Shown: positions 7,228-36,443, counted from the first letter of the stretch. The stretch: DNA of 42,317 nucleotides from Chloroflexi bacterium RBG_16_64_43 (GCA_001796965.1 MGOA01000050.1:1-42317); one strand, 5' to 3'. The notes: a model not told the origin generated them from the letters alone. A program made the numbers and translations.

Positions 7228-7237
7228 GACGCGTGCG

Positions 7238-7301: not shown

Positions 7302-7465
7302 CCCATTCGCGCAGCGGTGAGGCCCCAGGGCCGGCCCGCGGCGACGCGAGTTCCCCGAGGTCTTCCTCGTCGCACGATGCGCCTCCGGATCGCTGATGCA
7401 CAGGGCCGGGTGGCCATTGGATTGAACTGGCGGGGCCGCGCCTCGCACCCTCAAGGAGAACGGGC

Positions 7466-18350: not shown

Positions 18351-19286
18351 TCACAGCGGCGGGAGGGCCAGCTTCTCGATCTTGCGGCCGATCTCGCGCC
18401 ACTGGATGCGGCTCAGGCCGAGTTTCTCACGCAACCGGTCGGGGTCCATGCCCGCTTGCCGGTCACGAACGGCGCAGGTCCAGCGGCACATATCGAATGA
18501 GAGATGCTTGGCTAGCCCGGCTTGCAGGCCGATATCTTCAAGCACGTATTCGAGTTGGCGCGGGGACCATGGGAAGAGACGGTCGGCCAGGTGGTACTGC
18601 TCCACGTAGTCGCGGTACAGGCCGACCCACTTCGGTTCGAGGGCAATCTTGCGTTCCTTGAAGCGCATACGCGGCTGGGTATAGCGCACGAACAAGAAGG
18701 GCGACTCGGGCGTACTCACATCCACGTGGCTGATCTTGAGCCCCTGGCATTCGCCCTTCTTGATGCCGGTCTTGAGCAGCAACTCGAGCAGTACGGCCGG
18801 ACGCGCATCGGCCTTTGCTCCGCTGCGGCCGGCCTGCATGCCCCGCGCCGCAAGGCGCGCCGCCTCCACCTCCCCGGCGCTGAGGACTTCGGGCAGCGGG
18901 CTGATCACCGTCTTCTGGACCAGCGGCGCAGCAGGATCCTCAGGCCACACTCCCTTCTGATGCATGTACCGAAAGAAGGCCTTGAGCGAGGTTATCCGCC
19001 GCGAGTACGTTTTGGGGCTGCATGGGACGCCGCGCGCCGAACGCATCCACTCCAGGAAGGCCTGCAGATCGCTCGTGCCGATCTCCCCCAGGGCGCGGCC
19101 GGCGCCCACATAGCTCGCCAGCAAGTTGAGGTCGGCAGTGAAGGCCTTGACCGTGTTCTCGGCCAAGCCCTCGTCCCCGAGGTGCCTCTTCCACACATGC
19201 AGGCCGGTCATCAGCGAAGAGCGCGGATTCACGGGACCGCTCTCCGCCGTGGATGAACCCGGTGAGGTGCTGGAGGGATGCGTCAT
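18351..19286 (-). CDS. Tyrosine-recombinase-like protein with degenerate active site
   Basis: N-terminal SAM-like core-binding domain (TVKAFTADLNLLASYV ... TYSRRITSLKAFFRYM). The C-terminal catalytic-fold region aligns to Xer/integrase boxes, but with TGIKKGE (Arg to Lys), SFDMCRW (HxxR to DxxR), LGLS (His to Leu) and no Tyr in the last ~70 residues. Confidence 0.7.
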   Translation of the reverse strand: MTHPSSTSPGSSTAESGPVNPRSSLMTGLHVWKRHLGDEGLAENTVKAFTADLNLLASYVGAGRALGEIGTSDLQAFLEWMRSARGVPCSPKTYSRRITSLKAFFRYMHQKGVWPEDPAAPLVQKTVISPLPEVLSAGEVEAARLAARGMQAGRSGAKADARPAVLLELLLKTGIKKGECQGLKISHVDVSTPESPFLFVRYTQPRMRFKERKIALEPKWVGLYRDYVEQYHLADRLFPWSPRQLEYVLEDIGLQAGLAKHLSFDMCRWTCAVRDRQAGMDPDRLREKLGLSRIQWREIGRKIEKLALPPL

Positions 19287-19402
19287 GACCGTGGCGATCC
19301 TGCTCTCACTCTTGCGCGAGCGGCGGGTGGGGCTCCAGGCCGCTGTGCGGCCCGGCCGAGAGTGCGCTACAGCAGCTCAACCAACACGGGCAGGCTGTGC
19401 GT

Positions 19403-20521
19403 TTATGGGTAGAGCGCTTCCTGCAGCAGGTTACGGATCGCATCTGGGATCGGCAGTTGGACGTCGGCGCCGGCGGGCGTGATCCAACCGTAGCACTGAG
19501 TGGGGCTGACGATACGATAGCGGCGCACGTTGTCGGGCCGCACGCTGGTGGCCATGGTCACGAAGGGAGCCAGATCCTGGAAGGAAAGATCCATGTCGAC
19601 GAATTGGCGAAGCTGGTCGAAGAAGCCCGGCATATTGGCGAGCGCGTTGAGGCTGAGCAGCCGGTTGGCAAATCCAAGAATCACTTCTTGCTGACGCCGC
19701 TCCCGGTCGAAATCACTGGTGGAATATCGCGAGCGGACATACCACAGGGCGGTAGCGCCGTCCATATGCACCACGCCGGGATACACCGTGTAGTCACCGT
19801 ACCCCTTGCGCTTGTCGGTCAGCGTTTGCGCCACGGGCACGTCTATGCCGCCGAGCGAATCGACCAGCCCGGTGAAACCGCTGAAGTTCACCCGCACCCA
19901 GTGATCCACCCGCAGGCCGAAGTTGTACATCATCGTGTCTTGGAACAACCCGAAACTCCCGCCCTCGTAGCCCAGCGTGTAGCCGATGGGGAACGCCACG
20001 TTGATGCGCTGCATGGTGTAAGCGGGTATGTACACATACAGATCGCGGGGGAACGAAATGAGCGTGGCCGTTCCGCGCGAGCGGTTGAGCGAAAGGATCA
20101 TGATCGTGTCGGTGCGATACGAGCTACCGAACGGCCGCATGTCGCTGCCCAGCAAGGCAATGTTGAGCACCTCGTCGCTCAACTCGAAGGGCTGGGCCGG
20201 GGTGGGGATGGCCGTGGGTGCAGGATAGATCGGCCCGGCGTAGGGCGACCAGGGCGGCACGCCAACATAGGGCGTGGGCGGCACGAGCGGCTCGCCAGCG
20301 CCGGGTGTTTCCTGCAGAAAGGGCGCCAGTTGAGTGGCCAGGGAAGGCAGGAAGGGCGTGGGCGTGCTTGAGGCGGGCAGGAAAGGCGTAGGTGAAATCG
20401 AGTTGCCGGGGTTCCCTCCAAAGAACATGGAGGCCCCGTTACCCAATAGCATGCAGCTCAGGCTGAGGGCGCTGGCCGCACCAAATGCGGCGGCGATGAG
20501 GGGACGTCGTCCAGCAGACAT
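19403..20521 (-). CDS. LytR-CpsA-Psr (LCP) family cell-envelope phosphotransferase
   Basis: LCP core: NIALLGSDMR...RTDTIMILSLNRSRGTATLISFPRDLYVYIP ... VDHWVRVNFSGFTGLVDSLGGIDV. An N-terminal TM is followed by a Pro/Thr linker with a duplicated TPTPFLP. ATG 20521 is preceded by AAGGAAGG. Upstream alternatives are 20569 and 20743. Confidence 0.85.
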   Translation of the reverse strand: MSAGRRPLIAAAFGAASALSLSCMLLGNGASMFFGGNPGNSISPTPFLPASSTPTPFLPSLATQLAPFLQETPGAGEPLVPPTPYVGVPPWSPYAGPIYPAPTAIPTPAQPFELSDEVLNIALLGSDMRPFGSSYRTDTIMILSLNRSRGTATLISFPRDLYVYIPAYTMQRINVAFPIGYTLGYEGGSFGLFQDTMMYNFGLRVDHWVRVNFSGFTGLVDSLGGIDVPVAQTLTDKRKGYGDYTVYPGVVHMDGATALWYVRSRYSTSDFDRERRQQEVILGFANRLLSLNALANMPGFFDQLRQFVDMDLSFQDLAPFVTMATSVRPDNVRRYRIVSPTQCYGWITPAGADVQLPIPDAIRNLLQEALYP

Positions 20522-20548
20522 TCGCCTTCCTTGAGCAACTGAAGATGT

Positions 20549-20585
20549 GCCCTGCGCGCGCAGGGCCATCTTAAGGACGATTATA
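20549..20585 (-). promoter_or_regulatory. Candidate -10 (TATAAT) plus an 18-nt perfect palindrome in the LCP 5' region
   Basis: The + strand attata (20580-20585) reads TATAAT on the minus strand. The palindrome gccctgcgc|gcgcagggc lies at 20549-20566, between the predicted TSS and ATG 20521. Confidence 0.35.
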
Positions 20586-20658
20586 CGCCCGCCGGAGTTC
20601 CAAGCGGCGATTCGCGGGGCGAGGGGCTGCCGACGAATGCCAGAGTACGCGGGACGGC

Positions 20659-23049
20659 TCAGGTGTACGCCCCGCTTTGAGGCGCAGCCAGAGGCACTTC
20701 GATGGAGAAGGTGCTGCCCTGGCCGGCCTGGCTCTCGACCCAAATACGGCCGCCGACCGATTGGGCCAACTCGTGGGCCACCGCCATGCCGATTCCCTTT
20801 TCGCCCAGGCCGGCCAGCGGAGCGCCTGTGCCGCGCGCGATCGAATCAAACACCATCGGGTAATCGTCTGGGGCGATGCCCGCCCCGCCGTCGTCGACGG
20901 AGACGAGCAGGGCCGAGGGCGGTCCGCCCTCGGGCATGCGCAGATGCGCGCGCACTCCCACCTCGCTGTGGGGCGGGGTGGCCAGCACCGCATTGCGCAC
21001 CAGGTGATAAAGCAATTGGCGCACGCAGGCCCGATCGGCCTCGGCCTCGAAGGTCGTCTCGGGCAATTCGAGGTGAATGCTCAACTCGCGTTCGCGGATC
21101 AATTCGCTGGAGGCCGTCAGGGCCGCGTCGACCTCCTCGGCCACTTCCAGCGGTCCCCAATCGACCGGGGCTTCGGAACGGGCGAACGCGGCCAGGCTTT
21201 CCAGGTCCTGCGCCAAGGCTTCGGCCTGATAGGCCCGATCGCGCAGGTGCTCGAGCGGCTGGCGTTGCATCGAGCCCAGCAACGCCGCGCCCTGACCGGC
21301 CACAAGTTCAGAGTCGCTGCGTACCGAAAGAACGGCCTTGAGCAGTTCGCGGGCGAGGGAGAGGACCACTTGTTCGCCGAGAAGCCCGCCGCGGGCCGGG
21401 GGCACCGCACGCGCCGGTTCATCCCACCCCACGCCCTGGCGCTCCAATTCCTTTTCGGCACGGTCGAGCGCCATGCGCAGCCGCTGGACCTCTTCGCTAT
21501 GTTCGGACATAAACTCGTGCAGCACTTCACCCGAAGGAGCGGGGATGGGCTGACCCGCCAAACTGGCCCGCAGCGAGGCAATCACCTCATCCCGATTGAG
21601 CAGAACCTGAGAGAGGGCTTCTTCCAGGTGGGTGACTTCGGCCTCCATCTCCTTGAGGCTTTCCGGTTGCGTCCGCTGGGTAAGCTGCACCTCCAGCGAG
21701 TCGGCCCGCCGGCGTTCGGCTTGCAGGTCCTCTTGCGCCTGTCGCAGGCGGAAGCCGAAGTCGGAGTTCTCCTCGCGCAAATTGGCCAACTCGGCATCCG
21801 ACATCAGCGCCCGCGATCGGGGCGGTTCGCGCGGCGCCTCGGGCAGCAACTGTGAGGGGGCCAGGTCGGTGACAAGCGGCGCGGCGAAAGCGCCCAATGT
21901 GCGCTGATCCTCGCTGCTCCATTCGCGTCCGCTGTAGGGTGATAGGACAAGCAAAGCCGTGCTGGCATTCGTGCCGGCGGCCAACGGCATCAGCATCGCC
22001 GGGCCGGGTTGGGGCAATCCCACCGCTTCGGCAACACGCTTGTAGTCGGCTGGCAGGTCGGCTGCAGAATAGGTGTGGACGCCGTCTTGTGCGAGTTGGG
22101 CAATGATGCTTCCACTCTGGTCGCCCGGCAGGAATGCGCCGAGCAAGGGTTGCGAGCGCACCAGATCGTATCCGGCGGTGATATGAAGACCGGCCCCGTC
22201 TTCCGCTCGCACGAGGGTCAGGGCCACATCTGCATTGAGTGTGCGGGCGGCCCAAAAGGCAAGATCTTCGGCCATGGAACGGGCTGCCATGGGCGCGCCG
22301 GCCACACCCGGGGTTTCTGGTGGCGCGGGTTCGTCGCTCGTCGCAGGGGTGAGCCGCACCGCGACAGCATGTGCCGGGCGGCTGGCCAACGCTGCGATCC
22401 ACACAATGAACAGTGGATAGACGATCACTTCCGCCGCACGTAGCAGCGTGGCGAAATCCTCATCTGGTCGGCGCAGCACGCCTTGCACTATCGCAGCCGC
22501 CAGGAGCAGGCCGATGGCCGTCAGTCGCAGGCCGCGCAGCGCGGACCGGCGCAGGAACAGGAACGCCGCGCCGATCACCGCGGCCAGCGCGAGGCTTGCA
22601 TCCCACATGGGTGCTAGCACGGTGGTGTTGAATCGCAGTTCCGGGAGCTGGAGGGCCGTGGAGTAAAGCAGCACGCTGGAGGCCAGAGCCAGCACCAGCG
22701 CCAGCCCGGCGGCGGTGAAGGCGATCAGCGCAGCCAGCCGCCCGCTCGGCTGGAGCACCAGCCAAACCAGGAGCACGGCCGAGATGACACTCGTGGCGCG
22801 ATCGGCATTGCCGAGCGCCGTTCGGGCAAACGTACCGCCGTCCCACGCGGCCCACACCGCGAGCGCCGCCAGCACGATGCGCAAAGTGACCATCACGCCC
22901 AGGCCTAGCGCGAGGCGCGTCCACAGCTCGCGGCCCAAGTGTGACCGCCACGTCGCCGCCAAGATCAGGCCCAAGACCAGCGCGAGGAGCAGAACCAGAT
23001 TGGCCGGCGGCAGGCTGAGCGCGTCGAGGATGCCGGGGGATGTGCTCAT
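20659..23049 (-). CDS. Polytopic membrane GAF-domain histidine-kinase-like protein (H-box His apparently missing)
   Basis: Roughly six N-terminal hydrophobic segments. A GAF-like block follows (ARTLNADVALTLVRAEDGAGLHITAGYD...), then an ~80-aa charged coiled coil. The DHp-like helix pair reads LSLARELLKAVLSV...DLESLAAFAR. The HATPase_c is intact: N box LVRNAV, G1 DDGGAGI, F VFD, G2 GEKGIGMAV, then GGRIWVESQAGQGSTFSIEVPL. Confidence 0.8.
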   Translation of the reverse strand: MSTSPGILDALSLPPANLVLLLALVLGLILAATWRSHLGRELWTRLALGLGVMVTLRIVLAALAVWAAWDGGTFARTALGNADRATSVISAVLLVWLVLQPSGRLAALIAFTAAGLALVLALASSVLLYSTALQLPELRFNTTVLAPMWDASLALAAVIGAAFLFLRRSALRGLRLTAIGLLLAAAIVQGVLRRPDEDFATLLRAAEVIVYPLFIVWIAALASRPAHAVAVRLTPATSDEPAPPETPGVAGAPMAARSMAEDLAFWAARTLNADVALTLVRAEDGAGLHITAGYDLVRSQPLLGAFLPGDQSGSIIAQLAQDGVHTYSAADLPADYKRVAEAVGLPQPGPAMLMPLAAGTNASTALLVLSPYSGREWSSEDQRTLGAFAAPLVTDLAPSQLLPEAPREPPRSRALMSDAELANLREENSDFGFRLRQAQEDLQAERRRADSLEVQLTQRTQPESLKEMEAEVTHLEEALSQVLLNRDEVIASLRASLAGQPIPAPSGEVLHEFMSEHSEEVQRLRMALDRAEKELERQGVGWDEPARAVPPARGGLLGEQVVLSLARELLKAVLSVRSDSELVAGQGAALLGSMQRQPLEHLRDRAYQAEALAQDLESLAAFARSEAPVDWGPLEVAEEVDAALTASSELIRERELSIHLELPETTFEAEADRACVRQLLYHLVRNAVLATPPHSEVGVRAHLRMPEGGPPSALLVSVDDGGAGIAPDDYPMVFDSIARGTGAPLAGLGEKGIGMAVAHELAQSVGGRIWVESQAGQGSTFSIEVPLAAPQSGAYT

Positions 23050-23088
23050 CGAGCGGCCCTTTCTGTGAGCACGGGGTAGATGGCCCGA

Positions 23089-25569
23089 CTATCTTATCAT
23101 GGGCAAGCGCGCGAGCGCCCACAACCCCTCGAAGGAGGCATCGCGCACGGCCGCATCCGGATCGGCCAGACTTTGCTTGAGGACCCGCATGCGCTCGGGA
23201 AAGGCGGCCTGCCGCCAAGCCTCGGCCGCGGCCAAACGCTCGCGCGGATTGCCTTCGGCCAGAGCGCGTTCGAGCACCGCCATGGCTCCGGCACCGCTGG
23301 GCACTCCGCTTCCGCGGGCGGCGGCGAAGGCCACCAGCCATGGCAGGTCCGCGGCATCCGCAGGCTTGGCCGGCGGCGGACCTTCGGGAGTGGCTTCCAG
23401 AGCCGTGGCCGCTGCGGTTCGCACGACCCATTCCTTATCGTCACGCGAGACCTTGCGCAGCACATCCACCACCCACGGCTCGTTGACTTGCGCCAGCCCG
23501 CCGATTGACGTTCTGCGGACCAAGGCGTCCGAGTCGGTCGCAGCCTCGCGCAGAATTGGGTATCCCTCCTCGCGGTCAAACGACAAGCCGACGCTCGCCG
23601 CGCGGCGGGCGTCTTCCTCGCCGGTGAGCAGCGTGCGGCCGAGTGCCTCGGCCGCCTCCTTGCGGGCCATGCGCCCGAGGCCCCTGGCCGCCGCCCAGCG
23701 CACCTCACGGTTGGCCGAGTCGAGCAGATCATCCAGCCCGGCGATGGCGCCGCCGTCGCGCAGCGCGCCGAGCCCAAGCGCCCCCAGCACTTGCCCCTCG
23801 GCGTCATCCGCCGCCTCGAGCATCTGACGGAACAAGACCAGAATGCCCGGATCGAGCGAGGCGACCAGTGCGCATGCACAGCGAGCACGCAGCGGGGAGG
23901 GCCAGCGTTCATTGCGAACCACCCCCGCCAGACGACGCAACACGTCTGATCTCCATTCGGCTTCGCCCGCATTGCGCAGCCACGCGGCGCATTCCAGTAA
24001 CGCATTGGCTTCGCGCACCCATGGCACAAGGCGCAACGTTGTGTCGGTTCCGCTGGAGGTCGGTGGGCTCTCGGAGGAGGTCGTCAGGCGGTCGCGAGTG
24101 AGAGGCCCGAGATCGAGCACATCGCCGGCGAGCGAGAGCGCCACCTCGGTGAAGGCCGTGCTGGGCAAGGCGAGCAGCGCATCGGTTGAGCCGACCCGCT
24201 CGCTGCGTGCCAGGTGGTGCGCGGCCAGTCGGCCCGCGATGGAAGGATGGGCAAAAGCCAGGCGGCCCGCCAGTGTGGCGCGCCAAATGCCGCGGGCAAT
24301 CAGTTCCGCCGACACCGCGCTGATGTCCACCGCCGGGCGGGTCTCGATCCCGGTGGCCGACGAAAGGGCGCGCTCGCCATCCGCGCGGCTGAGCACGGCC
24401 ACTCCGGCGGCGACCATCGTCCCCGCCAACTGCTTGAGGCCCGGGACCCAGGCTGGTTCGCACTGCCGGCGCACCAGCGCGTCGAGGTCGCTGGACGAGG
24501 TCTTGCCCAGCGCGTCGCCTGCGCAGGCCGACCACAGACGCAAAGTGATCTCGAGCGGCGAAGTGAGCGCAGCCGGAACGGACAACCAGCCGCGCAAGAT
24601 GTCGAGCGATGGCCATTCGGCGGAGGCCGAGGCACCGGCGATGTGTTTCTTCCAACGGTCTACCCACCGGCCTACGAAGGCTTCGTGTTTGGAGTCGGCC
24701 CAGGGCGCGACGGCGGCGCAGGTGAAGCCCATCATCTCCCACAGCGGGAGGCCGCGAAAGCCGTCGGCGACGATGATCCTCAATCGAGGCGATTGGCGCA
24801 GCAGGACGCCCAGCCACTCGCGCACACGCAGGGCGTGTGCGTCGGAGAGCTCGTCGAAGCCGTCCAGCAGGAGCCAGGGGGCCTCGCCGGTCAGCCCGCG
24901 CTGGACGAAAGCCGGAAGGCCGGGCAGCGTGCGGCGCGAGCAGTGGGGGCGCATGGCTTGCACCAGGACATCAATGGTGGGCGTCTTGCCCGGCGCCGGT
25001 TCCAGGTCTGCCGCATGCGCGAGCAACAATGACGTTGGCAGGTCCTTGCGCTCGATGAACGCGGCCAACTTGCCGGCGCGCAACCCGAGCACGATCGCGG
25101 CCAGCGCCACCGTGCGCCCGCTGCCCGGCCGCCCGCACAAGACCACATGCTGGCGGCCGCGGACGACGACCTCGAGCGGCGCCTGGGGCCAGCCGTACAG
25201 GGCGCCAAGCTGCGGCCAATCCGGCGTGAAAGGTAACACTTGCGGCAGGTCGCTCTCGGCCTCCTGCAAGGGGTCCGAGCGGGCTGGTGCGCGCAGAACC
25301 GTCGGCGGAACGAGGATCTCGTCGAGCAAGAAGAGCGGGCCAGCCAGGTGGCACGTCTGCGCCCAACGCACCAGATCGCGCGAATAGGATTGCGCCGTAC
25401 CGGTCGCCAAGATTTCGCGCCACGCGGCCCATTGTGCGCGCAGTGCGCCGAACGTGCGCAGCATGCCTGCCCGGCGGCTCACGACGAGCGCCGTGAGCAA
25501 GGCGCCCAGTGCCGCGCCGGCTGTGAAAGAGGCGGTGTCGAATTGCCAGCGCGATCCGAACAGACCCAT
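23089..25569 (-). CDS. Membrane-anchored NACHT-type STAND NTPase with C-terminal HEAT-repeat array
   Basis: N-terminal TM (FTAGAALGALLTALVV). Walker A reads GRPGSGRT (25134-25111, Lys replaced by Arg). Walker B is PWLLLDGFDELSD, followed by RIIVADGFRG. The C-terminal third contains repeated HEAT/PBS-lyase-like units (VRWAAARGLGRM, DARRAASVGL, ALVRRTSIGGLAQV, VVRTAAATALEA, AVRDASFEGLW). Confidence 0.8.
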   Translation of the reverse strand: MGLFGSRWQFDTASFTAGAALGALLTALVVSRRAGMLRTFGALRAQWAAWREILATGTAQSYSRDLVRWAQTCHLAGPLFLLDEILVPPTVLRAPARSDPLQEAESDLPQVLPFTPDWPQLGALYGWPQAPLEVVVRGRQHVVLCGRPGSGRTVALAAIVLGLRAGKLAAFIERKDLPTSLLLAHAADLEPAPGKTPTIDVLVQAMRPHCSRRTLPGLPAFVQRGLTGEAPWLLLDGFDELSDAHALRVREWLGVLLRQSPRLRIIVADGFRGLPLWEMMGFTCAAVAPWADSKHEAFVGRWVDRWKKHIAGASASAEWPSLDILRGWLSVPAALTSPLEITLRLWSACAGDALGKTSSSDLDALVRRQCEPAWVPGLKQLAGTMVAAGVAVLSRADGERALSSATGIETRPAVDISAVSAELIARGIWRATLAGRLAFAHPSIAGRLAAHHLARSERVGSTDALLALPSTAFTEVALSLAGDVLDLGPLTRDRLTTSSESPPTSSGTDTTLRLVPWVREANALLECAAWLRNAGEAEWRSDVLRRLAGVVRNERWPSPLRARCACALVASLDPGILVLFRQMLEAADDAEGQVLGALGLGALRDGGAIAGLDDLLDSANREVRWAAARGLGRMARKEAAEALGRTLLTGEEDARRAASVGLSFDREEGYPILREAATDSDALVRRTSIGGLAQVNEPWVVDVLRKVSRDDKEWVVRTAAATALEATPEGPPPAKPADAADLPWLVAFAAARGSGVPSGAGAMAVLERALAEGNPRERLAAAEAWRQAAFPERMRVLKQSLADPDAAVRDASFEGLWALARLPMIR

Positions 25570-25572
25570 GGG

Positions 25573-26274
25573 CTACCCCGTGTAAAGAATGCGGCCGCAA
25601 TTGCCGCACATCACGATCTCCTCGCCGGTGCGTGCGGCATCGACGCGCGCCTGGGAGGGGGCGACGCCGCAGCGGCCGCAGGTCGATCCATCCAGTCGTG
25701 CCACGGCCGTTCCGCGTCGTGTGCGGCGCAAGTTATCGTAGGTCCCTTGATCCTCGGGGGTGATGATCGCCACGGCTGCTTCGCGCTGGGCCAGCAAGCG
25801 CTCGACCGTCGCTGCCAACTCAGCTCGTTCTTGGTGCAGGTCGCCTTCCTGTTGCCCGCGAACCGCCTCGACTGCCTCGAGCGCAGCGCGCGCCGCGGCG
25901 TGGACTCCTTCCGCCTCATCTTGCGCGACCATTCCCTGCAATTGGCGATCTTCAAGTACGCCCAGGAAGCGCTTGAGCGAAGCCGCTTCGTTCTCGAGGT
26001 CTTTGAGCTCCTTTGGGCTGTGAACTTCGCCGCTGTATAACAGCCGTTCAGTCTCGCGGAATTTGCTCTGTTGCGAGACGACCTCACCTTCCGCTTTGAC
26101 TAGCGCGCGGCGGGCATCTTGCAGCGCCGCCTGCGCCGTGCTTTCTTGCTGGCGGGCGGCTTCCACTTCGGGCGCGACGGCCAGCAGGGCTTCGATCTCG
26201 CCCAGGCGAGTGCGCGCCCCATCAAGTTCGTGGTCGAGCAACTGCAGACGGAAAAGATTCGAGACGCGACTCAT
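25573..26274 (-). CDS. COG1579/DUF164 coiled-coil protein with C-terminal C4 zinc ribbon
   Basis: LFRLQLLDHELDGARTRLGEIE..., SGEVHSPKELKDLENEAASLKR, YDNLRRTRRGTAVARL, and a C-terminal CGRCG...CGNCGRILY. I prefer ATG 26274 over GTG 26280 because the -10 box ends at 26283. The stop lies 3 nt from the NACHT ATG. Confidence 0.85.
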   Translation of the reverse strand: MSRVSNLFRLQLLDHELDGARTRLGEIEALLAVAPEVEAARQQESTAQAALQDARRALVKAEGEVVSQQSKFRETERLLYSGEVHSPKELKDLENEAASLKRFLGVLEDRQLQGMVAQDEAEGVHAAARAALEAVEAVRGQQEGDLHQERAELAATVERLLAQREAAVAIITPEDQGTYDNLRRTRRGTAVARLDGSTCGRCGVAPSQARVDAARTGEEIVMCGNCGRILYTG

Positions 26275-26282
26275 GAGCACGG

Positions 26283-26310
26283 ATTATAGGGAATTCCCCC
26301 CCAGCGTCAA
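26283..26310 (-). promoter_or_regulatory. Near-consensus sigma70 promoter of the COG1579-NACHT-kinase operon, with a palindrome in the spacer
   Basis: Minus-strand read: TTGACG (26310-26305), 16-nt spacer ctggggGGGAATTCCC, then TATAAT (26288-26283). The ATG is 8 nt after the -10, so the mRNA is leaderless or nearly so. Confidence 0.55.
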
Positions 26311-26333
26311 CTCAACCAACCCGGCGTGCGCGA

Positions 26334-26389
26334 CAAGAATTGCCCAAGAATTCTGTTGGGGGAATTGGGGCAAGAGGCGATGTTAGAAT
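26334..26389 (+). promoter_or_regulatory. Extended -10 promoter (TGtTAGAAT) for the MFS gene, preceded by GAATT-core repeats
   Basis: TG at 26381-26382 and TAGAAT at 26384-26389. The A of ATG 26396 is the 7th nt after the -10, so a leaderless transcript is predicted. CAAGAATT occurs at 26334-26341 and 26345-26352 (11-bp phase), and GGGGGAATTGGGG at 26358-26370. Confidence 0.45.
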
Positions 26390-26395
26390 CGCGGG

Positions 26396-27685
26396 ATGCA
26401 AATCGATCACGGAGTCGGCGAGCAGGGAATCCGTCGCGACTTCCGTTTGGGCGTGATCAACGGCGCCCTCTTCGGGTTGGCCGAGACGCTGACGGATCCG
26501 GCGCTGGTCCTGGTGGCCTTTGTGGTGGCCCTGGGTGGTTCGCCGCTGTTGGTCGGGCTGGCGGCACCGATTCGCAATGCTGGATGGTACCTACCTCAAC
26601 TCCTGATTTCTGGTCGGACGCAATCGGCACCACGCACGCTGCCGATCTATGCTCGGGTCGCCGTCTTGCGTCTGGCAGGGTGGGGAGTGATCGCGGTGAC
26701 GCCGCTCCTGTTGGGGCGGCTTTCGCCCGGCGCTGTGTTGGCCGTCTTCCTAGTGGCCTTCTTTGTGGCTGAGAGCGCGGCAGGTGTGGCCGGGCTGCCC
26801 TTCCTGGAAGTCGTTTCCAAAGTCATTCCTCCCGGGCGGCGAGGCGAGTTCTTTGGCTGGAGGTTGACCCTGGCTGGAGCAGCCGGCATTGTTGCCGGGT
26901 GGCTGGTGCACGAATTGCTGCGCGACGGCGGTGCGGTCGGCCTGCCGCTCAACTACAGCGCGTTATTCTTCCTGGCTTTTCTGGCATACGTCGTGGCAAT
27001 GACCGTTTTCTTCTCGGTCGGCGAGCCGGCCAAAGCCCACACGGTGCGCGGCATCGCGCTGAGCGAGCAACTGCGTTCGGCGCGCGGGCTGTGGGCGCAC
27101 GATTCGAACCTGCGGCGCTTCCTGTATATGCGACTGGCGCTCATTGTCACCGGTGCCGCAGTCCCTTTCTACACGCTGTACGCCCAACGTGAACTCGGCC
27201 TGCCAGTTGAGGAAATCGGCGTGTATCTCACCGTGTACACCGGCACCTCGCTGGTGGCCAACCTGGCCATCGGCCGGCTGACCCGGCGGCTCGGCGACCG
27301 CCCTATCATGCGCTTGTCGGGCTGGGCCAGCCTGTTCATGTCGCTCGTGGTTATCGCGCTGGGGGTCTTCGCAGCGCGGGCCGGGGTGCGCTGGTTGAAC
27401 GCGGGGATGATCGTTGTTTACGCGCTGCTCGGCGTGCGCGAAGCGGGTATTGGCATTGCCGGGATGAGCATGCTGCTCGAGTTGGCCGGCGAGAAGGGGC
27501 GGTCGCTGTATCTCGGTCTGGCCAATTCGGTGATGGGCTTGGGCCTCCTGGCCTCTGCCGCCAGCGGGGTGCTCGTCGAGCTGGCTGGCTCGCTGGCATT
27601 GTTTGTTGTGGCCGCGTTAGCCAGCGCCGGCGCGCTGTGGTTTATCGAGAGGATTCGCGATCCAGCGATCCAGGAGGCAGCTTGA
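26396..27685 (+). CDS. MFS transporter
   Basis: 429 aa with hydrophobic segments throughout (about 12 by eye) and typical MFS loop motifs (GRLTRRLGDRPIM). Confidence 0.85.
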   Translation: MQIDHGVGEQGIRRDFRLGVINGALFGLAETLTDPALVLVAFVVALGGSPLLVGLAAPIRNAGWYLPQLLISGRTQSAPRTLPIYARVAVLRLAGWGVIAVTPLLLGRLSPGAVLAVFLVAFFVAESAAGVAGLPFLEVVSKVIPPGRRGEFFGWRLTLAGAAGIVAGWLVHELLRDGGAVGLPLNYSALFFLAFLAYVVAMTVFFSVGEPAKAHTVRGIALSEQLRSARGLWAHDSNLRRFLYMRLALIVTGAAVPFYTLYAQRELGLPVEEIGVYLTVYTGTSLVANLAIGRLTRRLGDRPIMRLSGWASLFMSLVVIALGVFAARAGVRWLNAGMIVVYALLGVREAGIGIAGMSMLLELAGEKGRSLYLGLANSVMGLGLLASAASGVLVELAGSLALFVVAALASAGALWFIERIRDPAIQEAA

Positions 27686-27736: not shown

Positions 27737-27850
27737 CCGCGGAATTCTCGCTGAGCGGAGAGGCGGGCACGGGGCCGCATGCGCCCGCTGCTTCATCCTC
27801 TCCCTTTCACCGGCGGGAGATACACGGATGATATGGAAGGAAGGACACGC

Positions 27851-29095
27851 ATGAAGCGCCGCCAACTCTGGACGCGTCTCGCACTTCTGACACCCATTGC
27901 CATCAGCCTGGCGTGCAGCTTGCCCGAGATCATCGCGCCGATCGCCACCCCTGGATCGGCGGCCGAGACACCTGGGCAGGAGGCCACGCTCATTCCTGTC
28001 GACCCAACGTCGGCCGCAGGCACTGAGACCGCGCCCGGCACAACGCCTGAGGCCACGCTGGTCCCGACGGCTGAATTACCCACCGAGTCGCCTCTGGCAC
28101 CGGTCGTATACCCGGTGGGGCCCGACAACTTCTCTGAGGACATCAACCCGCTGACCGGGTTGCGCGTGGCCGAGCAGGCGCTGCTTGAGCGCCGGCCGCT
28201 GGCGATCAAGGTGTCGAATTTCCCGCGCAGCGCCCGTCCGCAGGCAGGGCTCTCGCAGGCCGATCTAATCTGGGAGTACTACACCGAATCTGGCAGTACC
28301 CGATTCCTGGCAATGTACTACGGCCAGGAAGCGAGCAAGGTGGGACCCATCCGTTCGGCCCGCGTGGAGGATACACGCATCGTCCCGCTCTACAACGCCA
28401 TCCTCGTCCATGTTCAGGCTTACCAGGATGTGTGGGATCAGATGTACTCCTCCGGGGTGGATTTCATAAACGAATTCCCTGCCTCGTGCCCGGCCATTTG
28501 CCGCGACGCGAATGAGAAGATCAAAGAGAACTCCGCCTTCGGCAACACGGTGGAACTGACGAAGTATGCCGGCATCGTTCGCCTTCTGCGCGATCGCCCC
28601 AACCTGAACGGGATGGTGTTCGACTCGGCCACGCCCGCCGGGGGAGGTGATGCGGCATCGTTGTGGGTACGCTTTTCGGCGGCGGCCCTGGGGGAGTGGC
28701 GCTACGATGCGGTCTCCGATTCCTACTTACGCTCTTCGGAGAGCGAGTCCGGCGCGATGGTGGCGCTCAACGACCGCGTGACCGGAAGACAACTCTCGGT
28801 AGCCAACGCGGTCATTCTGTTCGTGCCGTTCAACCGCTACGTCGGCAAGACGACCACCGCTGAAATGTGGGATCTCATCATCAGCGGCGAGGGCAAGGCC
28901 GTCTTCTTCCGCGATGGCAAGGTGTTCGAGGGCACCTGGAAACGAGTCTCGGCCAGCCAACCGCTCCAATTGCTCGGTCCATCGGGCTCGCTCTTCGCCC
29001 TCCAGCCAGGAAGCACGTGGATCGGGGTCATCGGCAAGAACTCGGGCGTAACGCGAGATGCCACGCAATGGCAGTTCCGCATGGCATGGCCATGA
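27851..29095 (+). CDS. DUF3048 (YerB-like) lipoprotein, paralog 1
   Basis: ATG 27851 follows GGAAGGAAGGA. Lipobox IAISLAC, then a Pro/Thr/Ala/Glu linker. DUF3048 core: INPLTGLRVAEQALLERRPLAIKVSNFPRSARPQAGLSQADLIWEYYTESGSTRF...VGPIRSAR. Confidence 0.85.
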   Translation: MKRRQLWTRLALLTPIAISLACSLPEIIAPIATPGSAAETPGQEATLIPVDPTSAAGTETAPGTTPEATLVPTAELPTESPLAPVVYPVGPDNFSEDINPLTGLRVAEQALLERRPLAIKVSNFPRSARPQAGLSQADLIWEYYTESGSTRFLAMYYGQEASKVGPIRSARVEDTRIVPLYNAILVHVQAYQDVWDQMYSSGVDFINEFPASCPAICRDANEKIKENSAFGNTVELTKYAGIVRLLRDRPNLNGMVFDSATPAGGGDAASLWVRFSAAALGEWRYDAVSDSYLRSSESESGAMVALNDRVTGRQLSVANAVILFVPFNRYVGKTTTAEMWDLIISGEGKAVFFRDGKVFEGTWKRVSASQPLQLLGPSGSLFALQPGSTWIGVIGKNSGVTRDATQWQFRMAWP

Positions 29096-29167
29096 TCGAC
29101 GGCTTGGGAGGATCGTGAGCCAGATGGAGTCTCGGTGACAACCGTTCAAAAGATACGTCGCCCGCAC

Positions 29168-30373
29168 ATGTCGCGCTGGCCTGTGCGGGCGACGGGCATT
29201 GCGTTGCTGGCGGCCACCCTCGGGTGTCAGGGGCTGACGCTGAGCCTTGCGCCCTCTCCCGCGGCGCCGACATCGACTCTGGCGCCTGGGCGGGCGGCGA
29301 CCACCTTACCGCAGCCCGACCCGCAGGCAACTCTCGGGTCACCTCCCACTGGGTCCAACCCGGGCGCAACTCTCGAACCGACCGCCACCGAAGGCGCGCT
29401 ACCCGTTGCCACGAACGCTGCGCTGGCGATCAACCCGCTCACCGGCCTGCCAGTGGCGGACGCCAGCCTGATCCAGCGCCGCCCGATCGGCATCAAGGTC
29501 TCGAACTATCCCCGCACCGCCAGGCCGCAGGCCGGCCTTTCGTTCGCCGACCTGCTTTATGAGTTCTATCAGGAAGCAGGCGATACACGCTTCCATGCCG
29601 TCTTTCTGAGCAACGATGTCGAGAAAGTCGGGCCAATTCGTTCCGGGCGCAAAGTAGATGCGAACCTGCAGCAGCTCTACCAGTCGCTGCTGATCTTCAA
29701 CGCCGCCGATTACCGGGTGTGGGAATACTTCCACGAAACGCCTTCAAGGGAGTACATCATCCCCGAAGGCCCCGCGCCCTGCCCGGCCCTGTGCCGCGAT
29801 TCGTCGCAAGCGCAGGTCAACAGCCTGTATGCCAACACGGCGGCGTTGCGCAAGGCCGCGGATGCGCTGAAGATCCCGAATATTGCGCCGGATCTGAGCG
29901 GCATGACCTTCGATACCGCGCCGCCAACAGCCGGCGCCCCCGCATCCAGTGTGCTGGTGCGCTTCTATACGGATAACGCGCGCGCCGAGTGGCGCTACGA
30001 CCCGGCCACGCAGAAATACTCCCGCTGGTCGGAGACCTCCAGTGGGGGCATGGCACCGCTCAAGGATCGCTTGACCGGCCAGCAATTGACCGTCTCCAAT
30101 TTGGCGGTGGTCTTTGTTACCTTCTATCGCCCCCAGCGGGTCGAAATCTACGACGTGATGTTGTATGGCACCGGGCGGGCGGTGCTGTTTCGCGACGGCG
30201 TGGCAACCGAGGGCGGCTGGTTGGTGGCCAACCCGGACCAACCGCTGCAGTTCTCCAGTTCATCCGGCCCGTTTGCCTTCCATCCCGGGGTGACCTGGAT
30301 CGCATTGATCGGTGAGAATTCCACCTTCACCCAGTTGGACGGGAATTGGCGATTCGAGTTCGACTTCCCATAG
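29168..30373 (+). CDS. DUF3048 (YerB-like) lipoprotein, paralog 2
   Basis: ATG 29168 (GTG 29135 is possible). Lipobox LAATLGC. Core: INPLTGLPVADASLIQRRPIGIKVSNYPRTARPQAGLSFADLLYEFYQEAGDTRF...VGPIRSGR. Confidence 0.85.
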   Translation: MSRWPVRATGIALLAATLGCQGLTLSLAPSPAAPTSTLAPGRAATTLPQPDPQATLGSPPTGSNPGATLEPTATEGALPVATNAALAINPLTGLPVADASLIQRRPIGIKVSNYPRTARPQAGLSFADLLYEFYQEAGDTRFHAVFLSNDVEKVGPIRSGRKVDANLQQLYQSLLIFNAADYRVWEYFHETPSREYIIPEGPAPCPALCRDSSQAQVNSLYANTAALRKAADALKIPNIAPDLSGMTFDTAPPTAGAPASSVLVRFYTDNARAEWRYDPATQKYSRWSETSSGGMAPLKDRLTGQQLTVSNLAVVFVTFYRPQRVEIYDVMLYGTGRAVLFRDGVATEGGWLVANPDQPLQFSSSSGPFAFHPGVTWIALIGENSTFTQLDGNWRFEFDFP

Positions 30374-30421
30374 CGGGAGATGCCTCACCTTGCTGAAGCA
30401 TTCAGACCAGGAGGCGGTGCG

Positions 30422-31651
30422 ATGGCCACTTCACGGACATTGACTAGCCGAGGGATCGTGTTGCTGGCGCTGAGTGCAGTGTTGATCGGATGCACGCAGC
30501 CACTGGCACTGCTGCCCGGCGAACAGGGTATCGCGCCGGCGGAAGCGACCCCGACTGCGGCCGAAGCGCCTGTTTCTGAACCGCCAACCTTAACGCCTTC
30601 CCTCGCGCCTGAGCTGCCCGAGGCGACACCCACCGCAACGGAAGTCCCGACAGCCACCGCCTCGCCGACTCCTGCACTGCTGGGGCCGGCCTTTGCTCCG
30701 GGGATCGATCCTCTAACCGGACTTGCGGTGGATGACCCCGCCTTGCTCGATCGGCGGCCGATGGGTATCAAGGTCTCGAACTTCCCGCGCAGCTTGCGCC
30801 CGCACACGGGGCTCTCTCTGGCCGACCTGGTGTTCGAGTACTACACCGAGGAAGGCATGACCCGCTTCCTGGCGTTCTACCTTGGGCACGACGCCCCGAA
30901 GGTCGGCCCGATGCGCTCGGTGCGCCTGGTGGATGGCCAGCTGGTGAAAATGTACAACGGCGTTCTGGGCTTCGTCGGCGGCGACCCGTTCGTGCTTGGC
31001 CGCGTGATCGGGATGATCGGTTCGTCGCGGGCGTTCAGCCAGTCGCCCTCCACCTGCCCGGCCATCTGCAGAGAGGGCAACGGTAACGTCAACAGCGTCT
31101 TCGCCGATACGGCGGAGCTGACCGTCCTGGCCAAATCGCAGGGGGCGCAAGACCTGAACGGCATGGTCTTCTCGAGTGAACCGCCGCTCGCGGGCGTGCC
31201 CGGGACTCGTGTGCACGTCCAGTTCTCAAACGGGGCCCGTGCCGAGTGGCGCTGGAGCAGCGAACTTGGCGCTTATCAGCGTTGGTCTGAAGATGTACTG
31301 GAAGGCCGGATCGTGATGGAGCCTCTGACCGACCGCCTCACTGAAGCGCAGATCCAATCCCCCAATGTGGTCGTGGCCTACGCCTGGTATGCGCGCGGAT
31401 CGGGCAACGAGAAGTACAACATCGAGTTCGTGTATCGCAAGCGCGGCCGGGCCCAGGTGTTCCGCGACGGGATGATGGTCGAGGGTTTTTGGCTGGCCGA
31501 GGACGCAATCAGCCCGCTGCAGTTCATCGACGGCGCGGGTGACCCCCTGCCGCTTAAGCCGGGAGCCACGTGGATCGAGGTGGTGGGCGAGAATTCAACT
31601 CCCACCGAGACGGCGCCCGGCGAGTGGAACGTGCGCTTCCGTTTCCCCTAG
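30422..31651 (+). CDS. DUF3048 (YerB-like) lipoprotein, paralog 3
   Basis: ATG 30422 lies 7 nt after AGGAGG (30409-30414); ATG 30380 is possible. Lipobox SAVLIGC. Core: IDPLTGLAVDDPALLDRRPMGIKVSNFPRSLRPHTGLSLADLVFEYYTEEGMTRF...VGPMRSVR. Confidence 0.85.
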   Translation: MATSRTLTSRGIVLLALSAVLIGCTQPLALLPGEQGIAPAEATPTAAEAPVSEPPTLTPSLAPELPEATPTATEVPTATASPTPALLGPAFAPGIDPLTGLAVDDPALLDRRPMGIKVSNFPRSLRPHTGLSLADLVFEYYTEEGMTRFLAFYLGHDAPKVGPMRSVRLVDGQLVKMYNGVLGFVGGDPFVLGRVIGMIGSSRAFSQSPSTCPAICREGNGNVNSVFADTAELTVLAKSQGAQDLNGMVFSSEPPLAGVPGTRVHVQFSNGARAEWRWSSELGAYQRWSEDVLEGRIVMEPLTDRLTEAQIQSPNVVVAYAWYARGSGNEKYNIEFVYRKRGRAQVFRDGMMVEGFWLAEDAISPLQFIDGAGDPLPLKPGATWIEVVGENSTPTETAPGEWNVRFRFP

Positions 31652-34807: not shown

Positions 34808-35545
34808 CTAGAAATCTGCGCGCAGGACTCGCGAGCCGGTGGGCGCAAGGCTGCCCCCGGCGGGTTCGACAGTTACGCCGATGCCGCGATAGGCGGTCAT
34901 TGCTGACTCCGCGTGAAAGATGATCGACGTATACGGCATGGCGCGCGAGACCGCGAACAACCCACCGCTGGTGCGCGTGCCGTCCGGGGCGATCATCCAG
35001 ACTTGGTAGGTCTGCGCGGATTCGAGCGCCGGTAGCCCCCAGGCGATGAGCACGCCCAGGCGTTGATCCGCGTCGATGACGACGGTGCCGCCCGCGTTTT
35101 CGCCGATCACGGGAAGGCTGCGTGCGCCCGGGTACGCCACCAGCGCGAGTGCGGTCTGATTGATTTGCAGCTGCTCGCCCATACTGTTCACTTGTCGCTG
35201 AAGACCCATCACCTGTGTGAGCAGCCCCACGCTCACGCCAAGGGCGAGCACCAAACCGGCCAGAGCGCCGGCCATCGAGAACGAGATGCGGCGAGGCGAG
35301 GCGGCCGGGCGGCGTACCTTGGCCATCTCGGCCAACAGCGTAGCGCGCACCCGTGCGGGAGGCACGCGCTCCGCCACGGCGTGTAGTAGTCCTTCACCGA
35401 TTGCCTGATAGGACAGCGCTTCGCGGTGGCAGGATGGGCAGACGGCCAGATGCGCCTGCAGCGCGGCGCCCTGATCGGTCGTCAACGCGCCCAGCGCATG
35501 GGCTCCCATGGATTCACGTGCAGATTGATGCGAAAGGGCTTTCAC
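34808..35545 (-). CDS. Anti-sigma factor (zf-HC2 N-terminus, one TM, RskA-like C-terminal domain)
   Basis: HLAVCPSCHREAL (H-x3-C-x2-C), TM ALAGLVLALGVSVGLL, and a C-terminal YQVWMIAPDGTRTSGGLF...GVTVEPAGG. GTG start at 35545; ATG at Met13 is also possible. Confidence 0.75.
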   Translation of the reverse strand: MKALSHQSARESMGAHALGALTTDQGAALQAHLAVCPSCHREALSYQAIGEGLLHAVAERVPPARVRATLLAEMAKVRRPAASPRRISFSMAGALAGLVLALGVSVGLLTQVMGLQRQVNSMGEQLQINQTALALVAYPGARSLPVIGENAGGTVVIDADQRLGVLIAWGLPALESAQTYQVWMIAPDGTRTSGGLFAVSRAMPYTSIIFHAESAMTAYRGIGVTVEPAGGSLAPTGSRVLRADF

Positions 35546-35861
35546 GAAATTGGCTCATGAGCGGAGAAACGCCCGCCACCACGTGATACGCCCAGACCCG
35601 GGCATTTGGATTTACCGGCGGGCGAAGCTCTGTTCGGGTCTGGCTGCCACTCCGCTTTCTCATTCCGGCTGCGCCGCCACGGCCATATCCACACGTCGCG
35701 GGCGCTTTGTTCATGTCCGCGGCCACCCCATCCCAAGGGGGAAGGTGCGACATGCGCCCACGCGGTGATACGGGCGCGGCGGCCGCAGCCGCAGGCTGGT
35801 TCTTTTTGTGGGTGCGATTCAACGGCATAGGCAGCAAGGCCGCATCTTCTGCGGCGCAAGG

Positions 35862-36410
35862 CTAATCGGGGGCGAACCATTCCTTTCGCAGCCGCGCCAT
35901 GCCGAGGCGTATGCGAGTCTTGACCGTACCGATCGGCCAACCCAGCGCCTTGGATATCTCGCTGTGGCTTAGGCCGCGATAGAAGGCAAGCTCGATTGGC
36001 TGGCGCTGGGCTTCGGGGAGCGCGCCAACGGCCAGGTGCAACGCGCGCCAGCGGGCTTCGTCACCCTGGCTGGATTGATCCGGCAGCACGGCCCATGTCT
36101 CATCGGGATCGGTCTCATCGCTCAGAGGCGGCCGGCGCTGCTCGACCCGCAGGCGGTCGAGAGCGGTGCGCCGGGCGATGGTCAGAAGCCAGGTGGAGAC
36201 CGCTCCACGGGCGGGCAGGTATCGGTCCGCGTGCGCCCAGAGCTTGAGGAAGACGTCTTGTGTCACTTCCTCAGCTGCCATCGCCTCGCCCAGCATGCGT
36301 GTGGCCAGCCCGAGCACCTTCCCGGCGTAGCGGTCGTAGAGGTGCAGCAGTGCGCGCTGGTCACGGGCGGCGAGGCCCGCGATCAATTGCTGATCGGTTG
36401 CTTCCGACAA
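35862..36410 (-). CDS. ECF (group 4) RNA polymerase sigma factor
   Basis: Region 2 (VTQDVFLKLW, WLLTIARRTALDRLR) and region 4 HTH (FYRGLSHSEISKALGWPIGTVKTRIRLGMARLR). I prefer TTG 36410 (GGGGG 6 nt upstream) to the ORF-track TTG 36512, because a perfect TATAAT sits at 36443-36438 inside that extension. The start remains uncertain. Confidence 0.75.
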   Translation of the reverse strand: MSEATDQQLIAGLAARDQRALLHLYDRYAGKVLGLATRMLGEAMAAEEVTQDVFLKLWAHADRYLPARGAVSTWLLTIARRTALDRLRVEQRRPPLSDETDPDETWAVLPDQSSQGDEARWRALHLAVGALPEAQRQPIELAFYRGLSHSEISKALGWPIGTVKTRIRLGMARLRKEWFAPD

Positions 36411-36437
36411 GGTATGCCCCCGATGGAATTGCCTGCC

Positions 36438-36443
36438 ATTATA
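36438..36443 (-). promoter_or_regulatory. Candidate -10 box (TATAAT) for the ECF sigma gene
   Basis: The + strand attata reads as a perfect TATAAT on the minus strand, about 28 nt upstream of TTG 36410. Confidence 0.4.

Follow-up and report, generated by a model that had tools for sequence, protein, structure and literature searches.

A zinc-ribbon coiled-coil gene and a gene for a membrane-anchored NLR-like NACHT-HEAT protein form an apparently conserved pair in the class Anaerolineae

Introduction

Bacterial NACHT and NLR-like proteins are now read almost wholly as immune or conflict proteins, patchy in their distribution and mobile. The Walker B signature D[GAS]hDE separates NACHT proteins from other STAND proteins, and in the defence protein bNACHT01 exchange of the Walker A lysine for arginine abolishes function (10.1101/2022.07.19.500537). 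AfsR provides a precedent for non-immune control of transcription by a bacterial NLR-type protein (10.64898/2026.09.02.748808). A second family, COG1579/DUF164, has been connected with RNA polymerase: HP0958 stabilises RpoN (PMC3372290), an interaction of CT398 with the sigma-54 holoenzyme is reported (Barta et al. 2015, as cited in bioRxiv 10.64898/2026.07.15.738315), and mycobacterial ML1638 as well as CT398 are predicted to sit on the beta' subunit of RNA polymerase, placing the tip of the coiled coil at the sigma site (bioRxiv 10.64898/2026.07.15.738315). COG1579 genes are usually found next to NIF3/COG0327, rpoD or primase genes (PMC3372290; PMC8469502). Here we analyse a locus at which a COG1579 gene adjoins a NACHT gene. 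It is located on a 42,317-nt contig of Chloroflexi bacterium RBG_16_64_43 (class Anaerolineae), which was analysed at its full length and is subsequently designated the window.

The first-pass annotation of this stretch had described a leaderless operon of three genes, encoding a COG1579 coiled coil, a membrane-anchored NACHT/HEAT NTPase and a pseudo-histidine-kinase, and had taken the three as one module. Our comparison of loci across the class points to a smaller conserved unit, comprising the first two genes, to which the kinase-like gene was added in one lineage.

Results

The conserved unit is apparently a pair rather than a triad

The locus consists of the following elements:

25573..26274, minus strand: gene 1, 233 aa, with stop codon TAG at 25575-25573
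23089..25569, minus strand: gene 2, 826 aa, with start codon ATG at 25569
20659..23049, minus strand: gene 3, 796 aa, with start codon ATG at 23049
23058..23063, minus strand: GAAAGG, a Shine-Dalgarno-like element in the 39-nt spacer between genes 2 and 3, 8 nt before ATG 23049 and kept in the related loci L001, L002 and L086

Long open reading frames (ORFs) are present in all frames of this DNA (65-69% G+C). The length of an ORF is therefore no proof of a real gene, and the real frames were picked by homology.

Residues 1-560 of the gene 2 product were employed in a HMMER search, which yielded 645 cluster representatives (50% identity), 174 of them at E<1e-30. Word-index searches had returned just relatives that are at least 75% identical and HEAT-only matches, and it was the exhaustive search of representatives that exposed the family. 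Nearly all members of the 174 clusters are 800-880 aa long and align from about residue 5; judged from these alignments, the architecture of the family is fixed. Loci were obtained by scanning one genome per GTDB species with a nine-sequence sub-alignment, taking the best 80 of 241 confirmed hits, and the six-frame ORFs of the scanned loci were searched with the window proteins. Among these best 80 of 241 hits there are 54 full-length family members, all from Anaerolineae/Chloroflexota and none from a genome already represented, while cyanobacteria contributed weak partial NACHT matches only. A COG1579 gene is located immediately upstream on the same strand at 49 of the 54 loci, and as three of the five exceptions lie at contig ends, the pair is present at 49 of 51 evaluable loci. 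The gap between the COG1579 stop and the NACHT start measures at most 9 nt in 34 of the 46 pairs for which both starts could be placed. Taken together, these data indicate that the conserved unit is the pair of a COG1579 gene and a gene for a transmembrane (TM)-NACHT-HEAT protein, which is widespread in, and apparently restricted to, Anaerolineae and appears to have been inherited vertically across the class.

The kinase-like gene has a different distribution. Not one of the 54 Anaerolineae species loci carries a same-strand kinase gene within 8 kb after the NACHT gene, and only two kinase-domain ORFs were found at these loci, one located 3.4 kb downstream in the opposite orientation (L006) and one located upstream (L029). 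The pair is followed by a kinase gene in two cases only, the window lineage, whose NACHT proteins are 75-92% identical, and P0008, the closest outgroup (38% identical). In the latter, an 834-aa HisKA/HATPase_c gene starts 24 nt after the NACHT-HEAT gene (called coordinates) and is succeeded by an OmpR-type regulator/kinase pair. By this comparison gene 3 is a lineage-specific addition to the operon. Hence, the three-gene module of the first-pass annotation stands in part: the triad is kept in relatives that are 70-92% identical, but at the 54 other loci the pair is not followed by a same-strand kinase gene.

Gene 2 encodes an NLR-type NACHT protein with a membrane anchor

The product of gene 2 comprises, in this order, a TM helix, a long helix, a pre-NACHT segment, the four NACHT modules and a HEAT array. 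The modules are the nucleotide-binding domain (NBD), helical domain 1 (HD1), the winged-helix domain (WHD) and helical domain 2 (HD2). The features are:

aa 12-31 (nt 25477-25536), minus strand: TM helix, from the AlphaFold2 (AF2) model
aa 33-72, minus strand: long helix, from the AF2 model
aa 73-135 (nt 25165-25353), minus strand: conserved pre-NACHT stretch, extended
aa ~136-500, minus strand: NBD-HD1-WHD-HD2
25111..25134, minus strand: Walker A motif GRPGSGRT, in which Arg152 (nt 25114-25116) replaces the lysine of the family
24850..24876 (aa 232-240), minus strand: Walker B motif WLLLDGFDE, carrying the D[GAS]hDE signature of NACHT proteins
aa ~510-826 (nt 23092-24042), minus strand: HEAT array

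Profile searches detected HEAT_2 (Pfam) with E=2.7e-20 and NACHT (PF05729) with 24.4 bits, just under the gathering cut-off of 26.7 bits. PF05729 hits are on record for the family members P0001-P0006; P0012 has a hit that is not flagged as weak, whereas the hits of the close relatives and of P0008 are flagged as weak or faint. An AF2 model built from a 66-sequence family alignment reached a predicted local distance difference test score (pLDDT) of 90.3 and a predicted template modelling score of 0.89. In the model, an NBD of alpha/beta fold is joined by helical and winged-helix modules, and the HEAT solenoid begins at about aa 510. When compared with the Protein Data Bank (PDB) by Foldseek, the top matches of the model are NLRP3, NOD2 and NLRC4 (E 1e-8 to 4e-6, probability 1.0), followed by alphaRep HEAT proteins, and a profile search of PDB sequences concurs. 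The Walker B pattern hhhhDGxDE is conserved across the family. The histidine of an FxHP motif is invariant in a nine-member family alignment; in the window the motif reads FAHP (aa 439-442), and by its position in the model, rather than by a residue-level structural alignment, this histidine is placed in the predicted WHD. We conclude from the model that gene 2 encodes a genuine NLR-type NACHT protein equipped with a TM anchor and HEAT repeats. Pfam, AF2 and Foldseek thereby bear out the single TM helix, the NACHT P-loop module and the HEAT array that had been proposed from the sequence.

The consensus of the Walker A motif in the family is GxPGSGKT, and the lysine is present in 60 of 66 representatives. 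Arginine occurs in the clade of the window and in four scattered representatives, a distribution that marks it as a variant which recurs rather than as a loss throughout the family. Within the protein, conservation is highest in the HEAT array and the pre-NACHT stretch. A sensor that diversifies against pathogens would show the reverse, and the conserved HEAT array therefore counts against a function in defence.

One family member, P0130 (1124 aa), carries a low-complexity insert of ~300 aa, rich in lysine and glutamate, between the NACHT helical modules and the HEAT array. The position of the insert coincides with the sole low-confidence loop of the gene 2 model (aa 500-508).

Gene 1 encodes a CT398-like coiled coil with a zinc ribbon

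The gene 1 product is a CT398-like coiled-coil hairpin with a C-terminal C4 zinc ribbon, i.e. a member of COG1579/DUF164. The hairpin is followed by the two CxxC pairs that characterise the family:

aa 199-202 (nt 25669-25680), minus strand: CGRC, first CxxC of gene 1
aa 223-226 (nt 25597-25608), minus strand: CGNC, second CxxC of gene 1

The Pfam profile CT398_CC matches with E=1.6e-16 and 61 bits against a cut-off of 27 bits, in agreement with the original assignment, while Zn_ribbon_9 scores 22.6 bits, under its Pfam cut-off of 29.1 bits. The protein aligns along its length with HP0958 (3NA7) and CT398 (4ILO), the phmmer matches spanning aa 51-232. The NCBIfam profile CdsZ gave E=2e-8 and 33.8 bits; as this is far under the cut-off of 275 bits, gene 1 is not a CdsZ equivalog. 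No description of COG1579 in combination with NACHT was found in the literature searched; the first-pass annotation, for its part, had not recognised its combination of STAND, pseudokinase and coiled coil from any described system.

A conserved promoter and a predicted leaderless transcript

Upstream of gene 1 the following element is present, as originally predicted:

26283..26310, minus strand: sigma-70-type promoter, with TTGACG at 26310-26305, a 16-nt spacer and TATAAT at 26288-26283

The site agrees with the consensus at 11 of 12 positions, and its -10 hexamer ends 8 nt upstream of ATG 26274. This ATG is taken as the start of gene 1 because a GTG at 26280 is not conserved. No Shine-Dalgarno site precedes ATG 26274. 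The promoter is the sole promoter-like site within positions 19000-27000; since shuffled sequences average 0.7 such sites, the match alone is not significant, and it is conservation that lends it significance. Indeed, the 32-nt promoter core GAGTTGACGCTGGGGGGGAATTCCCTATAATC is invariant in the relatives L001, L002 and L004 (proteins 81-87% identical), in contrast to the intergenic DNA around it, which varies. Moreover, at 43 of 46 distant orthologous loci a perfect TATAAT ends 6-7 nt upstream of the COG1579 start codon, and TTG is present in the -35 window of 27 of them. The whole window contains six TATAAT hexamers on both strands, and on these counts chance cannot account for 43 independent loci that share a perfect hexamer at a fixed distance from the start. 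Because the -10 hexamer ends 8 nt before the ATG and a Shine-Dalgarno site is missing, the transcript is predicted from sequence criteria to be leaderless, and this property appears to be conserved class-wide.

The arrangement downstream of the promoter, i.e. the head-to-tail layout, the spacings and the hairpin-free junctions, was confirmed as first described. Between genes 1 and 2 the TAG is followed by 3 nt (CCC) and then by ATG 25569, and since gene 2 starts a few nt past the stop codon of gene 1, translational coupling of both genes is suggested. Between genes 2 and 3 the 39-nt spacer precedes ATG 23049. A scan for terminators revealed no terminator-like hairpin at either junction, and no -10 element is present in the 39-nt spacer, where one was looked for. 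In view of the tight junctions, the conserved GAAAGG element before gene 3 and the lack of a -10 element or terminator in between, co-transcription of genes 1 to 3 in the window lineage is likely.

Genes 1 and 2 share the same reading frame with only TAG-CCC between them (25569-25575), and read-through of the TAG would yield a fusion protein. The shared frame is probably incidental, because the length of the junction varies between loci, from -28 to +83 nt in the 46 pairs. A 1078-aa protein, P0047, was considered as a natural COG1579-NACHT-HEAT fusion and was rejected: its second CxxC is replaced by out-of-frame-looking residues before the NACHT start, and it most likely represents a frameshift or an assembly artefact.

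Gene 3 encodes a kinase-like protein lacking the phospho-acceptor histidine

Gene 3 codes for a polytopic protein with a core composed of a dimerisation and histidine phosphotransfer (DHp) domain and an ATP-binding HATPase_c domain:

aa 18-221, minus strand: about six TM helices
aa ~254-400, minus strand: GAF-like domain (GAF_3, E=0.0015, a weak match)
aa ~418-537, minus strand: coiled coil
nt 21349-21351, minus strand: Arg567 of the DHp domain at the phospho-acceptor position, aligned with the histidine of SHELRTPL in HK853
aa 673-788, minus strand: HATPase_c (E=4e-18, 66 bits)

Profiles and the alignment with HK853 thus confirm the architecture given in the first-pass annotation, including the exchange of the H-box histidine for arginine. 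Pfam HisKA was not detected in the gene 3 product. The ATP-binding boxes are intact, N686, DxGxG (aa 720-724) and GxG (aa 752-754) being invariant in the alignment of the gene 3 family. At the phospho-acceptor position all gene 3 orthologues (70-91% identical) possess arginine and the 30%-identical P0169 possesses glutamine; hence, by alignment, the histidine is missing from every homologue recovered, the distant P0169 included. The kinase-like neighbour should accordingly not be named a histidine kinase in annotations. The earlier view that both enzymes are catalytically substituted applies to the window, where Arg152 and Arg567 are indeed present, but not to the relatives of gene 2, in 60 of 66 of which the lysine is normal. 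According to these alignments the label "pseudo-enzyme" holds for the kinase-like protein only. An AF2 model of gene 3 from a seven-sequence alignment had a pLDDT of 52 and was too poor for use.

In the syntenic relatives, the 10 kb flanking the NACHT gene on each side contain no called gene for a Response_reg or HPt protein, as had been noted for the window itself. The OmpR-type regulator present at the P0008 locus has a second, classical kinase as its partner. A metagenome scan with the sensor region of gene 3 returned three loci only. Among the homologues, P0169 has no NACHT gene within the 186 nt available upstream. L089 (967-4000), on a distant metagenome contig of low G+C content, is a homologue of the TM-GAF-coiled-coil portion with no kinase core and no NACHT neighbour. 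This sensor-half homologue is located directly upstream of an LCP (LytR_cpsA_psr) gene, and an LCP gene also follows gene 3 in the window, which suggests an association of the TM-GAF sensor with LCP. Functionally, gene 3 therefore seems to go with the envelope/LCP genes, its place on the transcript of the pair being that of a lineage-specific passenger, a view for which L089 is the single distant example.

Genomic setting of the locus

Downstream of gene 3 two further elements were recorded:

20580..20585, minus strand: second conserved TATAAT, 3' of gene 3 and 5' of the LCP gene
19403-20521, minus strand: LCP gene, with the Shine-Dalgarno sequence AAGGAAGG at 20525-20532 and a leader of ~50 nt

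The hexamer at 20585-20580 probably marks a separate promoter of the LCP gene and hence the end of the three-gene unit. The LCP ligase gene and a gene for a Xer-like recombinase constitute one flank of the locus. The other flank contains genes for an MFS transporter, three DUF3048 paralogues, glucan phosphorylase, an extracytoplasmic function (ECF) sigma factor with its RskA partner, and EF-G. Housekeeping genes of the window encode RodZ, a MiaB-like enzyme, tRNA-Arg, RuvA, ATP synthase, MreB, Rex, Obg and NadD. The whole neighbourhood is retained in relatives with a NACHT protein 75-92% identical, and the G+C content is even across the window. An Rfam scan detected tRNA-Arg alone and no riboswitch or leader RNA. 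An origin from a mobile element was rejected, as the Xer-like recombinase occupies the same place in all relatives, the G+C content is uniform and phages or plasmids provided no match.

At the other loci of the class the neighbours differ. Convergent genes for DUF167, YggT, YggS and PgeF are located downstream of the pair in 23-28 of the 54 loci and also in P0012. Within this ylm-type block, which begins 0.3-4 kb past the NACHT gene on the opposite strand (L005-L058), PgeF was recognised as Cu-oxidase_4 and a Glrx-DUF2085 gene is also present. Genes of the ylm type are usually found beside ftsZ. In 13-17 loci the pair is followed by an amidohydrolase gene and then by F420 genes. Pfam confirms the amidohydrolase and an F420-dependent oxidoreductase only, and the labels referring to F420 biosynthesis are presumptive, reflecting our reading of the sequences. 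Large polytopic membrane proteins are encoded upstream of the pair in 22 loci.

Further observations concern the surroundings in the window. The three tandem DUF3048 paralogues (438, 412 and 423 aa; 27779-31651, plus strand) are divergent from the locus and lie behind the MFS transporter gene. The trio is kept in all close relatives, and one copy adjoins the pair in the P0008 lineage. The ECF sigma factor (Sigma70_r2/r4) and its RskA-type zf-HC2 anti-sigma factor are encoded at 34808-36512 on the minus strand, ~9 kb from the locus, and represent a putative nearby target if the COG1579 protein acts on sigma factors. A 505-aa ORF with a C-terminal DinB_2 domain (5950-7467, minus strand) overlaps tRNA-Arg(CCG) (7153-7227) on the same strand; because of this overlap the ORF is regarded as over-extended, its true start being downstream of the tRNA.

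Discussion

A proposed membrane switch for a putative partner of RNA polymerase

In sum, the pair is a probable housekeeping regulator, as far as its distribution and conservation allow to judge. We propose that it constitutes a membrane-bound NLR-like switch that holds or releases a COG1579 partner capable of binding RNA polymerase or a sigma factor, gene 3 being appended, and we assign to this reading a probability of roughly 0.5. According to this proposal, the NACHT-HEAT protein, held on the cytoplasmic side of the membrane, would change its conformation or oligomeric state in a nucleotide-dependent manner, and its conserved HEAT solenoid and pre-NACHT segment would bind a conserved endogenous partner, for which the co-expressed COG1579 protein is the top candidate. 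In analogy to a membrane anti-sigma factor, the switch might sequester the RNA-polymerase/sigma-associated factor at the membrane and release it, which is proposed because binding to sigma-54 is known, and binding to the beta' subunit is predicted, for COG1579 proteins elsewhere. The pair would then represent an NLR-type regulator with its output domain supplied in trans, and the Walker A arginine of the window lineage may bias the switch toward a slow- or non-hydrolysing state. The full version of this idea, namely a vertically inherited, non-immune NLR of the class that acts as a membrane nucleotide switch on an RNA-polymerase/sigma-binding factor in trans, is put forward tentatively, and we would sooner expect one of its parts to fail than all of them to hold.

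Several points weigh against the proposed switch. Two loci, L029 and L054, possess a NACHT-HEAT gene without an adjoining COG1579 gene, and at the P0012 locus (L090 2437-6028) a gene for a 136-aa CBS-domain protein is inserted between the COG1579 and NACHT-HEAT genes. Experiments link COG1579 proteins to RNA polymerase in sigma-54 organisms only; for other organisms the link comes from AlphaFold predictions in a preprint. An envelope role would agree equally well with the cell-wall and division genes that recur as neighbours. Finally, the window copy of gene 2, with its Arg152, might be functionally altered, a concern that arises since the same change abolishes the function of bNACHT01. Regarding the gene inserted at the P0012 locus, CBS domains bind adenosine nucleotides, and it could provide an added regulatory input.

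Alternative functions of the locus

All three genes could belong to one signalling system, in which the TM-GAF pseudokinase senses a signal from the envelope or a ligand and relays it to the NACHT-HEAT switch and its coiled-coil partner. The tight arrangement on one strand, with a Shine-Dalgarno element but neither promoter nor terminator before gene 3, the retention of the triad in all relatives at 70-92% identity and the membrane anchoring of both large proteins are compatible with such a relay. The order COG1579, NACHT-HEAT, 834-aa kinase even recurs in the deep sister lineage P0008 (38% identical); however, the window lineage and P0008 both have an upstream DUF3048 gene, and the common order may just reflect relatedness. 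Considering that no same-strand kinase gene follows the pair in the 54 other Anaerolineae loci or in P0012, and that the gene 3 homologues P0169 and L089 occur without a NACHT neighbour, the latter adjoining an LCP gene and even lacking the kinase core, we regard a three-component system as doubtful. An equally guarded view is warranted for a function of the pair in organising the envelope or division of filamentous bacteria, whereby a membrane-tethered NTPase, a HEAT scaffold and a coiled coil would place or regulate wall or division proteins. The family is apparently confined to a filamentous class, and its surroundings are suggestive, i.e. the convergent DUF167/YggT/YggS/PgeF genes (23-28 of 54 loci and P0012), the large polytopic membrane proteins upstream in 22 loci, and the LCP, three DUF3048, MreB and RodZ genes of the window. 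However, the envelope-type neighbours lie on the opposite strand and differ by lineage, being replaced elsewhere by amidohydrolase and F420 genes downstream, neither gene product of the pair matches a known division or wall protein family, and the literature on COG1579 points to transcription or secretion and not to the wall. We therefore judge this role improbable.

An anti-phage role is unlikely. Many bacterial NACHT proteins are anti-phage proteins, with TM and HEAT modules among them (10.1101/2022.07.19.500537), and the pair could accordingly be an NLR of the bNACHT/Avs-like type engaged in conflict, in which a phage protein is sensed by the HEAT array and either the TM segment or the coiled-coil protein serves as effector. 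Indeed, the PADLOC model HEAT-ARM_XIII matches the HEAT region with E=2e-8. However, this match spans generic HEAT repeats only and no NACHT model of PADLOC-DB 2.0 matches. Furthermore, the architecture is fixed and apparently inherited vertically across the class, the sensor region ranks among the most conserved parts instead of diversifying, the flanks contain housekeeping genes and no defence island, and the pair has no recognisable enzymatic effector domain. A tblastn search of phages and plasmids gave no match. Overall, we consider a bNACHT/Avs-like function very unlikely.

Significance

The gene 2 family appears to behave as a core gene, with a fixed architecture, a conserved "sensor", the same small partner and a leaderless promoter class-wide, and it offers a tractable case for a role of an NLR switch outside immunity. 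The poorly understood COG1579/DUF164 family gains a new partner gene, conserved in 49 of 51 evaluable loci. While the STAND/NLR kind itself is known, this two-gene association, which by comparison of loci is widespread in one bacterial class, was not found described in the literature searched. The natural alternation of lysine and arginine in the Walker A motif could reveal how much NTP hydrolysis the switch requires. If the proposed membrane switch is true, it would represent a new mode of coupling to transcription or the envelope and a rare NLR-type protein with a core bacterial role.

Comparison with known systems

The best structural matches for the NBD-HD1-WHD-HD2 core of gene 2 are animal NLRs (NLRP3, NOD2, NLRC4), and its conserved segment preceding the NBD occupies the place of the FISNA region of NLRP3. 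Identity to these proteins is 10-14%, however, and gene 2 differs in having HEAT instead of LRR repeats and a TM anchor instead of PYD/CARD domains, in being bacterial and in being apparently non-immune. With the bacterial bNACHT (Kibby et al., 10.1101/2022.07.19.500537) and Avs proteins the gene 2 family shares the D[GAS]hDE Walker B motif, the winged-helix histidine and C-terminal repeats, and both are expected to be nucleotide-dependent switches. Unlike these, the family has no enzymatic effector, is of fixed architecture and class-wide occurrence with no second copy per sampled genome, and combines a conserved HEAT array with a COG1579 neighbour, a housekeeping setting and the lack of a PADLOC NACHT match.

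Gene 1 resembles HP0958 (FlgZ), CT398 (CdsZ) and MSMEG_4306/ML1638 in that a coiled-coil hairpin is joined to a C4 zinc ribbon, but unlike other COG1579 genes, which neighbour NIF3/COG0327, rpoD or primase genes, it adjoins a NACHT gene. Gene 3 resembles His-less pseudo-histidine kinases such as DivL (PDB 4Q20), which is itself among the PDB hits of gene 3. Gene 3 keeps the DHp domain and an intact HATPase_c domain with N, G1 and G2 boxes. Whereas DivL has tyrosine at the phospho-acceptor position, the gene 3 family has arginine or glutamine, and unlike DivL it possesses a six-TM and GAF sensor, of which a homologue without kinase core exists (L089).

In terms of function, the pair may be likened by analogy to AfsR, MalT and GutR, bacterial STAND switches that are not immune proteins and that control transcription through their repeat sensors. 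Those proteins are soluble and carry their DNA-binding domain in cis, whereas gene 2 possesses a membrane anchor and no such domain in cis, its putative output being the separate COG1579 protein.

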